Assembly (NCBI GenBank): GCA_010356995.1
Contig: ML996687.1
Span: 1,737,803-1,801,802, forward strand
Direction: 5' to 3'
Origin: Trichodelitschia bisporula
Lineage: Eukaryota
DNA: 64,000 nt
Below, in pieces: positions 36,001-37,203 of this stretch. Position numbers and translations under genes: made by a program. Below the pieces are notes generated by a model. The model was not told the origin of the DNA, made no database searches, and saw only the letters and a program-made list of their open reading frames with translations. Every line of letters begins with the position of its first letter. Position 1 is the first letter of the stretch.

Positions 36001-36750
36001 TTACTCGGTGCGCTTAGGCAGTGCGATCTCATGCTTCCCGAATTCCACCTTGACCTGCTCGTACACCTTATCGGGAGGCGGCGTGGCAGAAAGTTTGACG
36101 ACTCTGCCTTGCTTCTCGAACATCTCGACGACAGGCATACTGGTCTCAACAAACGTCTTGAAGCGCTTTTTGATGCTCTCGATGTTGTCGTCCGAGCGAC
36201 CGGATGTCTTGCCTCGGTCCAACAGACGCTCCTCCATGACCTCCTCCGGGCAATCGAAGAAGAGCGTGAACTTGGAGGGGCAGACCACCTCCTCAAACTT
36301 GAGCGCCTGGTCCATCTTGCGCGGAAAGCCTGTATCAAAAAGACAACGATCAGCAACAAACTCGTCTATAAAGCAAGCCGCGGCGGCTCACGCACCGTCA
36401 ATCAGAAACTGTGTCTTCCCCTCCTTTTCCTTAGCCGCCGTGATGCTGTTCTCCAGCAGCTGAATCGTCACCTCCATGGGCACGATATTGCCCTCCCGGA
36501 TGTAGTCCCGGATCATGTCGCCGAACTGGCTGCCGGGCCGATCCTGCTCCTCACGCAGCAGGTCGCCCGCGCTGAGGTGCTTGAAGCCATAGTCCTCGAC
36601 GATTTTAGCGCATTGCGTGCCCTTGCCGGACCCAGGGCCACCGAGGACGAAGATGATGGTTGCCTCCTCGGGAGTGTAGAGAGGAGAGGTACGCTTGAAC
36701 GCAGCAAGCTCCGAGAGCTGGGCCTCCGCTTCGTTCGTTGGTGGTGCCAT
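36001..36750 (-). CDS. URA6: Uridylate (UMP-CMP) kinase
   Basis: [35 protein letters not shown] and GRSDDN motifs. Intron 36330-36395. Confidence 0.93.
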
Positions 36751-36849
36751 GTTTGTCTATATTCCTGTTGTCTGTCCTCACGGAGTATGTTGGTCGGCGG
36801 TGTGACGTCGGGACGAATCCAGGTCCGTTAATTTCTTTTTCTCCACTCG

Positions 36850-37203
36850 CTAGAAGCCTCGAGGACTGATACGGCCGTCTTTAGGGCCGGTACCGGAGCG
36901 CGACTTGACTATTTGAGAGAAGAGAAGGGTGCCGGAGGCGAAGATGAGGACAAAAGGCCAGGCGCGGATGGGTGATGGCTTTTTGGCTGCTCGGGGTGGG
37001 GAAGGGCGGACTGGCGGTACAGATGGGCTGGCGCTACTACTGGGGGAGCTGTATGCGCCCTTGAGCTGCTGATTGTTTTGGTGTGACAACGACCAGTGTG
37101 ACGAGGCCGAAAATGTTCGCGGAGCAAAGATAGTAAGAGCTGAATAGAAGGATGATGAAGGTACAAGGGGCGAGAAGACTTTGCGAGCAGGCGGCATGAT
37201 CAT
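36850..37203 (-). CDS. Small putative mitochondrial single-pass membrane protein immediately upstream of URA6
   Basis: 117-aa ORF with an S/R-rich N-terminus free of acidic residues (presequence-like), a Pro-rich linker, one TM helix (WPFVLIFASGTLLFSQIV) and a basic tail. Confidence 0.65.
   Translation of the reverse strand: MIMPPARKVFSPLVPSSSFYSALTIFAPRTFSASSHWSLSHQNNQQLKGAYSSPSSSASPSVPPVRPSPPRAAKKPSPIRAWPFVLIFASGTLLFSQIVKSRSGTGPKDGRISPRGF

Follow-up and report, generated by a model that had tools for sequence, protein, structure and literature searches.

A stand-alone microprotein upstream of URA6 in Trichodelitschia bisporula corresponds to the mitochondrial presequence and membrane anchor of fungal UMP-CMP kinase

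A 117-aa open reading frame directly upstream of the UMP-CMP kinase gene URA6 in Trichodelitschia bisporula represents, by homology and position, the mitochondrial presequence and putative inner-membrane anchor of the fungal kinase, standing here as a microprotein of its own. The coupling of this small ORF to URA6, for which a link of the microprotein to pyrimidine nucleotide supply had been suggested, is explained by that relationship, as the ORF is the former or alternative N-terminus of the kinase. Comparison of loci indicates that one gene pair flipped between the joined and the split state several times in fungal evolution. For the split locus of T. bisporula, two overlapping mRNAs are proposed with about even confidence, the shorter of which would start inside the small ORF. 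The window was a 64,000-nt stretch of contig ML996687.1 (assembly GCA_010356995.1, positions 1,737,803 to 1,801,802), to which all coordinates without a locus handle refer.

Results

Locus and RNA coverage

The small ORF, the spacer and URA6 lie on the minus strand (Table 1), the ORF being in the frame of the URA6 ATG and separated from it by three in-frame stops. The coordinates given in the preliminary description (117-aa ORF ending at 36850, 99-nt in-frame spacer with TGA and TAG, URA6 ATG at 36750) were reproduced. Begun at the second ATG, the ORF comprises 115 aa; the start context was judged from the −3 base alone, not from a genome-wide matrix. A presequence-like N-terminus is followed by a proline-rich linker, a single membrane helix (17 residues, mean hydropathy 1.84) and a short basic tail, and one acidic residue was counted in the 117 aa. 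In the helix region P, G and then R were invariant (22/22 aligned cores). The ORF is single-copy in its own genome, matched no Pfam family at E ≤ 1 and was absent as an annotated sequence from the protein collection searched. The URA6 product (227 aa) is identical to P0091, the T. bisporula uridylate kinase, and carries an ADK domain; annotated uridylate kinases match it.

Table 1 Features of the small-ORF/URA6 locus in window coordinates
Feature	Position	Strand	Basis
Microprotein ORF, 117 aa, ends TAG	36850..37203	−	ORF reading and homology
Two tandem in-frame ATGs (37203, 37197), A at −3 in both	37195..37203	−	
Conserved membrane helix (aa 83–99) after W-P motif	36907..36957	−	Hydropathy and alignment
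AUG-free stretch in all three frames, second ATG to URA6 ATG	36751..37194	−	
Spacer, 99 nt, two further in-frame stops (TGA, TAG)	36751..36849	−	
GTACCG, phase 1, at site of working donor in intron-type relatives	36888..36893	−	
URA6 (UMP-CMP kinase) exon 1	36396..36750	−	Pfam ADK
URA6 intron, 66 nt, GT-AG, spliced in both RNA runs	36330..36395	−	
URA6 exon 2 to stop	36001..36329	−	

URA6 and eIF3m are convergent with stops 326 nt apart (35674–36001); RNA contigs cross this gap, which suggests that the two 3′ UTRs overlap. The same-strand gene upstream (37599–38805, minus strand) encodes a NAD-isocitrate dehydrogenase subunit (Pfam Iso_dh), which was a neighbour in 0/80 fetched loci.

Two RNA runs from one sample covered the region. 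Contig X1:1 extended unbroken over 37153–36395 and X2:8 over 37155–36576, both without the URA6 intron and hence from spliced RNA; X1:1 also joined the convergent eIF3m gene, so that a contig is not equal to a molecule. Among the RNA pieces listed, the URA6 intron was the sole joint, no letter differed from the genome, and no loose poly(A) end was found in the spacer, the loose ends being adapters. The contigs ended at 37153 and 37155, about 50 nt inside the ORF and in one case at an adapter, which is not a start-site measurement; those of L006, L007, L008 and L021 likewise do not reach back to the upstream ATG, again as contig ends only. Among the intron-less Pleosporales-clade contigs, L006–L008 lacked the intron present in L014 and carried helix, stop and kinase on 1.1–1.2 kb, and L021 likewise held the three together, all four crossing the spacer without a joint. 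Around the spacer (36860–36745), folding against shuffled sequences detected no structured element, the region being less structured than the shuffles (z +1.74).

The RNA cover places the small ORF and URA6 in one overlapping transcription unit ending after URA6, and a single molecule with both ORFs would be consistent with it. The earlier proposal of one unit is thus borne out in so far as RNA spans most of the ORF and URA6; its single-molecule part goes beyond contigs, which cannot show starts or single molecules and from which rare variants drop out.

Relatives of the microprotein

An ancient coupled locus with a conserved mitochondrial-type microprotein had been postulated, together with an HMM and synteny check for a homologous ORF upstream of URA6. 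Such an ORF was found: a helix-region HMM scored above 15 bits on the same strand upstream of URA6 in 38 of the 80 fetched metagenome loci. A profile built from 22 cores retrieved 336 representative relatives at E ≤ 0.001, a figure that is not a count of microproteins, as some short matches are unspliced first exons of intron-type loci. Among the best 150 of the 336, 146 were of 250 aa or less and 5 carried the kinase P-loop. Stand-alone members include, by name, Aspergillus terreus, Cenococcum, Friedmanniomyces, Coniosporium and Parahypoxylon. Since eIF3m adjoins URA6 in 22 other fetched loci (duplicates included), orthology of the locus is supported. On this conservation the small ORF is taken as a real, conserved and unannotated microprotein gene.

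Homology to the kinase N-terminus was recognised from the kinase side. Fungal URA6 models with such an N-terminal extension, mentioned in the preliminary description, made up 6 of the best 120 kinase relatives; these models of 302–343 aa share the presequence, the proline-rich linker and the helix. The small ORF aligned with the N-terminus of the long URA6 model P0175 at 48% over 58 aa, and fusions, spliced or annotated, were collected in L025, L027, P0335, P0361, P0377, P0402 and P0447. The fused forms were found via the kinase sequence and not via the small ORF, which matched none of 468 longer candidate proteins at E ≤ 1 in a search that is weak for a low-complexity query. Matches of the kinase exon to longer proteins were crowded by multi-domain adenylate kinases. 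Rfam gave no match at gathering score in 8 loci.

In S. cerevisiae (L054) a 75-aa ORF ending 5 nt before URA6 is YKL023C-A, which confirms the yeast neighbour named earlier. YKL023C-A is MIN9; PMC5494306 lists its product as a class 1 mitochondrial protein of matrix/inner membrane and places URA6 in class 3. The YKL023C-A family PF23521 matched the Ura6 protein of Torulaspora above cut-off (aa 53–92; 52% over 31 aa) and that of C. albicans weakly; Min9 is accordingly read, at the level of protein sequence, as the same kind of severed Ura6 piece as the small ORF. The small ORF scored below the PF23521 cut-off, 0/22 filamentous cores matched this family, and BLASTP of the small ORF against Min9 gave no match. 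Profile comparison with hhalign linked the filamentous helix to the yeast helix at 65.5% (E 5.9e-5), a moderate value, and to the basidiomycete helix at 85.7%; yeast and basidiomycete profiles did not match each other (10.5%). By score the small ORF is therefore no PF23521 member, and its putative tie to Min9 is by profile and position. The mitochondrial location of its product is inferred from Min9.

Locus architectures across fungi

From 81 loci (80 fetched and the T. bisporula locus), 50 were classed by eye; excluded were 13 duplicates or near-duplicates, 2 spliced fused cDNAs (L025, L027), 1 unclassified locus (L055), 9 loci with short upstream DNA or no P-loop, and 6 non-fungal-looking loci. 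Among non-fungal-looking sequences, L076, L077, L079 and L080 encode GC-rich UMP-CMP kinases with a presequence-like, alanine-rich extension.

Helix and kinase were fused in one ORF in 13 loci, including Torulaspora, Candida albicans, C. parapsilosis, Geotrichum and an Anaeromyces-cluster protein. In 20 loci they were joined by a phase-1 intron directly after the helix, and L025 and L027 show the spliced helix-kinase fusion. In the kinase tree most intron-type loci fell in the Colletotrichum clade or a neighbouring clade, which presumably represents Leotiomycetes. A strict in-frame test for donor, branch site and acceptor was passed by 16 of the 20 intron loci, the other 4 having looser donors seen by eye, and by 0/17 split loci; this test is partly circular, as the classes, which follow the kinase tree, were set partly on visible donors. 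The 17 split loci comprise a Dothideomycete clade with T. bisporula, S. cerevisiae, Hanseniaspora osmophila, Malassezia and a basidiomycete-like clade. Their gaps range from −1 to 99 nt and do not exceed 21 nt in 9 loci, with frames 0, 1 and 2 in 8, 2 and 7 loci and all three stop codons in use. Since neither frame nor stop context is conserved among the 17, no programmed readthrough or frameshift was recognised there.

The kinase tree, a quick one with its deep forks open, needs at least five changes between joined and split. The direction of change is clear in budding yeasts only, where the outgroups are fused; the yeast split looks independent because Torulaspora, Candida and Geotrichum are fused.

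Several loci showed further peculiarities. In H. osmophila (L047:2284–2880) a 199-aa upstream ORF lies in frame with one stop, a 96-nt gap and 5 out-of-frame ATGs, and this fission may be separate from that of Saccharomyces. Geotrichum holds two URA6 paralogues (L045, L039), one fused and intron-less, the other intron-fused (201- and 315-aa models). Colletotrichum models (P0430 and P0211/P0214) share one helix but continue from it either as a stand-alone protein of 90 aa or as a fusion, a pattern that would fit alternative acceptors. The stop codon overlaps the kinase start in L066:470–477 (TGATG) and lies 1 nt from it in L063:178–187, as in translationally coupled genes. A conserved element around GAGAGCCG was found midway along the helix-kinase intron in 9/9 aligned introns (L010, L011, L013, L015, L018, L020, L030, L037, L041); it is not frame-preserving, had no Rfam match and is a candidate RNA element, or a candidate for the promoter of a short URA6 mRNA. 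The stretch L009:1–185 resembles unrelated coding sequence, and this contig is probably chimeric.

A minor or conditional fusion isoform in T. bisporula, made by splicing from a donor at 37020 or 36893, by readthrough or by A-to-I editing of stops, was judged highly unlikely. Fusion is real in other fungi, 8/17 split loci are in frame (7 of these with a single stop), rare variants are lost from contigs, and four Dothideomycete models (P0175, P0222, P0228, P0234, one named 'isoform B'), known as protein models alone, are fused. Against these points stand the three in-frame stops, contigs that contain neither a joint nor a letter change, the splice test and the frames of close relatives, L009 and L021 being out of frame and L014 in frame. 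The splice proposed earlier, from the phase-0 GTACCG at 37020 to the TAG acceptor 6 nt before the ATG, uses sites that are both present; it was not seen in the contigs, where the URA6 intron was the only joint, and no split locus passed the test. The GTACCG at 36893, with no branch site and in-frame acceptor downstream and no joint in the RNA contigs, is probably a relic or a coincidence. As far as contigs can show, the small ORF of the T. bisporula lineage is severed from the kinase by stops, without splice, editing or conserved readthrough.

Translation of URA6 from the split locus

ATGs were counted from 60 nt past the first start, ending at the kinase ATG in split and intron loci, 60 nt short of the P-loop in fused loci and at an internal Met in L061. 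Split loci contained 8 ATGs in 4804 nt (observed/expected 0.26), 14/17 having none and the remainder falling to L047 (5), L068 (2) and L059 (1). The reverse triplet CAT, used as control, was not depleted (1.04). Fused loci contained 24 ATGs in 2904 nt (none in 3/13) and intron loci 57 in 8363 nt (none in 1/20). Nominal P values of 1e-6 to 1e-2 are too small, as many loci are close kin and the classes were set by eye. The AUG-free pattern was seen in Dothideomycetes, Saccharomyces and basidiomycetes. The AUG-free stretch in split loci therefore points to ribosomes that scan through the small ORF to the URA6 AUG, be it after an internal transcription start or by leaky scanning, both of which predict the depletion equally. 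It is left unexplained if the two genes are separate and monocistronic, the spacer holding both a poly(A) site and a promoter. For such genes the 99-nt spacer would be available, and assembly can merge abutting transcripts, as with eIF3m; yet the gaps of −1 to 21 nt elsewhere leave no room, no loose poly(A) end lies in the spacer among the RNA pieces listed, and this arrangement was considered very improbable.

Termination-reinitiation, in which ribosomes restart at URA6 after the microprotein, would fit the short gaps of several split loci (−1, 1, 5, 5, 9, 9 nt) and the stop/start overlap of L066. It would not need a small ORF free of out-of-frame AUGs, the gap here is 99 nt, and gaps among split loci reach this length without a shared motif. 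Ribosomes reinitiate inefficiently behind ORFs of more than 100 codons, and this route appears improbable. From the routes offered in the preliminary description, an internal promoter or leaky scanning fits, and reinitiation after 117 codons is unlikely.

Under the proposed plan of two overlapping mRNAs, transcripts capped upstream of 37203/37197 would yield the microprotein, whose import would leave its N-terminus in the matrix and the short tail in the intermembrane space. A cap within the early ORF would give transcripts whose first AUG is that of URA6, behind some 400 nt of AUG-free leader, and from these a presumably soluble kinase. The layout would be the long/short-transcript plan of dual-targeted fungal genes, with a stop now between targeting piece and enzyme. 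An internal start is favoured because the tandem upstream ATGs carry A at −3, and because the URA6 leader of yeast is shorter than the distance to the MIN9 ATG: the S. cerevisiae URA6 5′ UTR is given as about 160 nt in PMC8943034 (citing Jiang 1991), and the MIN9 ATG lies 233 nt upstream of URA6. Near-cognate initiation inside the ORF was rejected, as the ATGs are 26–28 codons before the R-x-F-S motif, within the 16–27 of relatives.

Alternatively, one bicistronic mRNA could be capped upstream of 37203, with ribosomes leaking past the two upstream AUGs (for example near the cap) to URA6. This route is possible though not favoured. AUG depletion, RNA cover across the spacer and the unstructured spacer are compatible with it, and the −3 base is weak in 7/9 of the non-Dothideomycete split loci with known start (A in 2/9). 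Leaky scanning is documented in algal bicistrons (PMC11892635), and dual targeting by this route in Cryptococcus and Neurospora (PMC7049704). It is opposed by the A at −3 of the tandem AUGs here and in 5/5 Dothideomycete-clade split loci with known start, and by a yeast URA6 leader too short to span the MIN9 ORF (PMC8943034). Internal start and leaky scanning may both operate. The wider form of the latter, in which Ascomycota and Basidiomycota would conserve a true bicistronic mRNA, the repeatedly severed anchor being kept with its own inner-membrane function and Ura6 being co-translated by leaky scanning, is rather unlikely; if true, start-codon stringency would decide how much mitochondrial membrane protein is made relative to an essential pyrimidine kinase.

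Discussion

The microprotein is presumably a single-pass inner-membrane protein with its N-terminus in the matrix. A kinase targeted to the matrix had been expected from fusion; the fused fungi keep the helix, which predicts a membrane-anchored enzyme instead. Placement of the kinase on the intermembrane-space side would follow from stop-transfer sorting, by which the helix would hold it there, and not in the matrix, in fungi of the fused and intron types. That the helix was kept after repeated fission suggests a job of its own, and the conserved P, G and R together with clade-specific conserved tails would suggest a role in binding. Retention of the ORF could come partly from a promoter or leader function, which is insufficient because amino acids would not be conserved by it.

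Searches of PDB, Pfam and the Atlas assigned the helix to no family. The PDB profile search gave 3 spurious matches for profile A1 and 0 for A3; the top Atlas scores (0.87, 0.90) belonged to NDUFB11-, SDH7- and COX7B-like single-helix proteins and serve as leads only. Likeness to ATP synthase subunit i/j was dropped, as PDB and Pfam profile searches lent it no support. Cytosolic dihydroorotate dehydrogenase was likewise dropped as a correlate of the split state: the enzyme is described as a trait of the Saccharomyces lineage, and splits occur in many other lineages.

The analysis offers an origin, as the free mitochondrial anchor of Ura6, for the uncharacterised yeast Min9 and for hundreds of fungal microproteins in a family without a name. 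For yeast the link was latent in the databases, where the Pfam family already matches fused Ura6. A mitochondrial, membrane-anchored UMP kinase is predicted for fused and intron-type fungi and a soluble one for split fungi, which bears on metabolic models. Gene models are also concerned: in many of them the small ORF is missing or may have been spliced onto the kinase. If leaky scanning holds, the locus would be a rare conserved fungal bicistron. The YKL023C-A/URA6 pair was not found described as a bicistron, fission or alternative start in the literature searched, mostly without subscription papers, where unseen supplementary lists of isoforms or fusion/fission events may hold it; it is not described in the available parts of PMC3161974, PMC8061763, PMC4503453 and PMC4625875, and URA6 has 0 occurrences in the main text of the SearchDOGS paper.

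Comparison with known systems

Min9 resembles the small ORF in having a presequence and one helix, in its position directly upstream of URA6 on the same strand, and in an AUG-free course to the kinase start; it differs in length (75 vs 117 aa) and in its gap (5 nt out of frame vs 99 nt in frame). Long Ura6 proteins (Torulaspora, Candida, Geotrichum, K. phaffii and the Colletotrichum clade) carry the same presequence-linker-helix module before the same kinase, joined in one ORF or by the phase-1 intron, whereas three stops and no visible splice separate the two here. According to PMC6981350, the fused Ura6 of K. phaffii was found in mitochondria, and a mitochondrial Ura6 is predicted for K. lactis, C. 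albicans, Y. lipolytica and O. parapolymorpha.

The known kind closest to the locus is the dual-start targeting locus, here turned into a two-ORF unit. In dual-targeted two-start genes such as those of aminoacyl-tRNA synthetases, an upstream start adds the targeting sequence and a downstream start gives the soluble form, the choice being made by transcript start or leaky scanning (PMC7049704). Unlike in these genes, the upstream product here stops before the enzyme and is a separate microprotein, not an isoform. Green-algal bicistrons, as described in PMC11892635, are alike in a short AUG-poor ORF1 and a variable frame and gap before ORF2; their ORF1 starts are weak, whereas both starts here have A at −3, and they pair two unrelated genes, whereas the present pair stems from one gene. 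Agaricomycete polycistronic units, as described in PMC4503453, share tandem same-strand ORFs under one RNA, but have a full-size ORF1 (mean 256 aa), a mean gap of 364 nt and weak-terminator readthrough; they are poorly conserved outside their class, whereas the small-ORF/URA6 pair recurs over Ascomycota and Basidiomycota.
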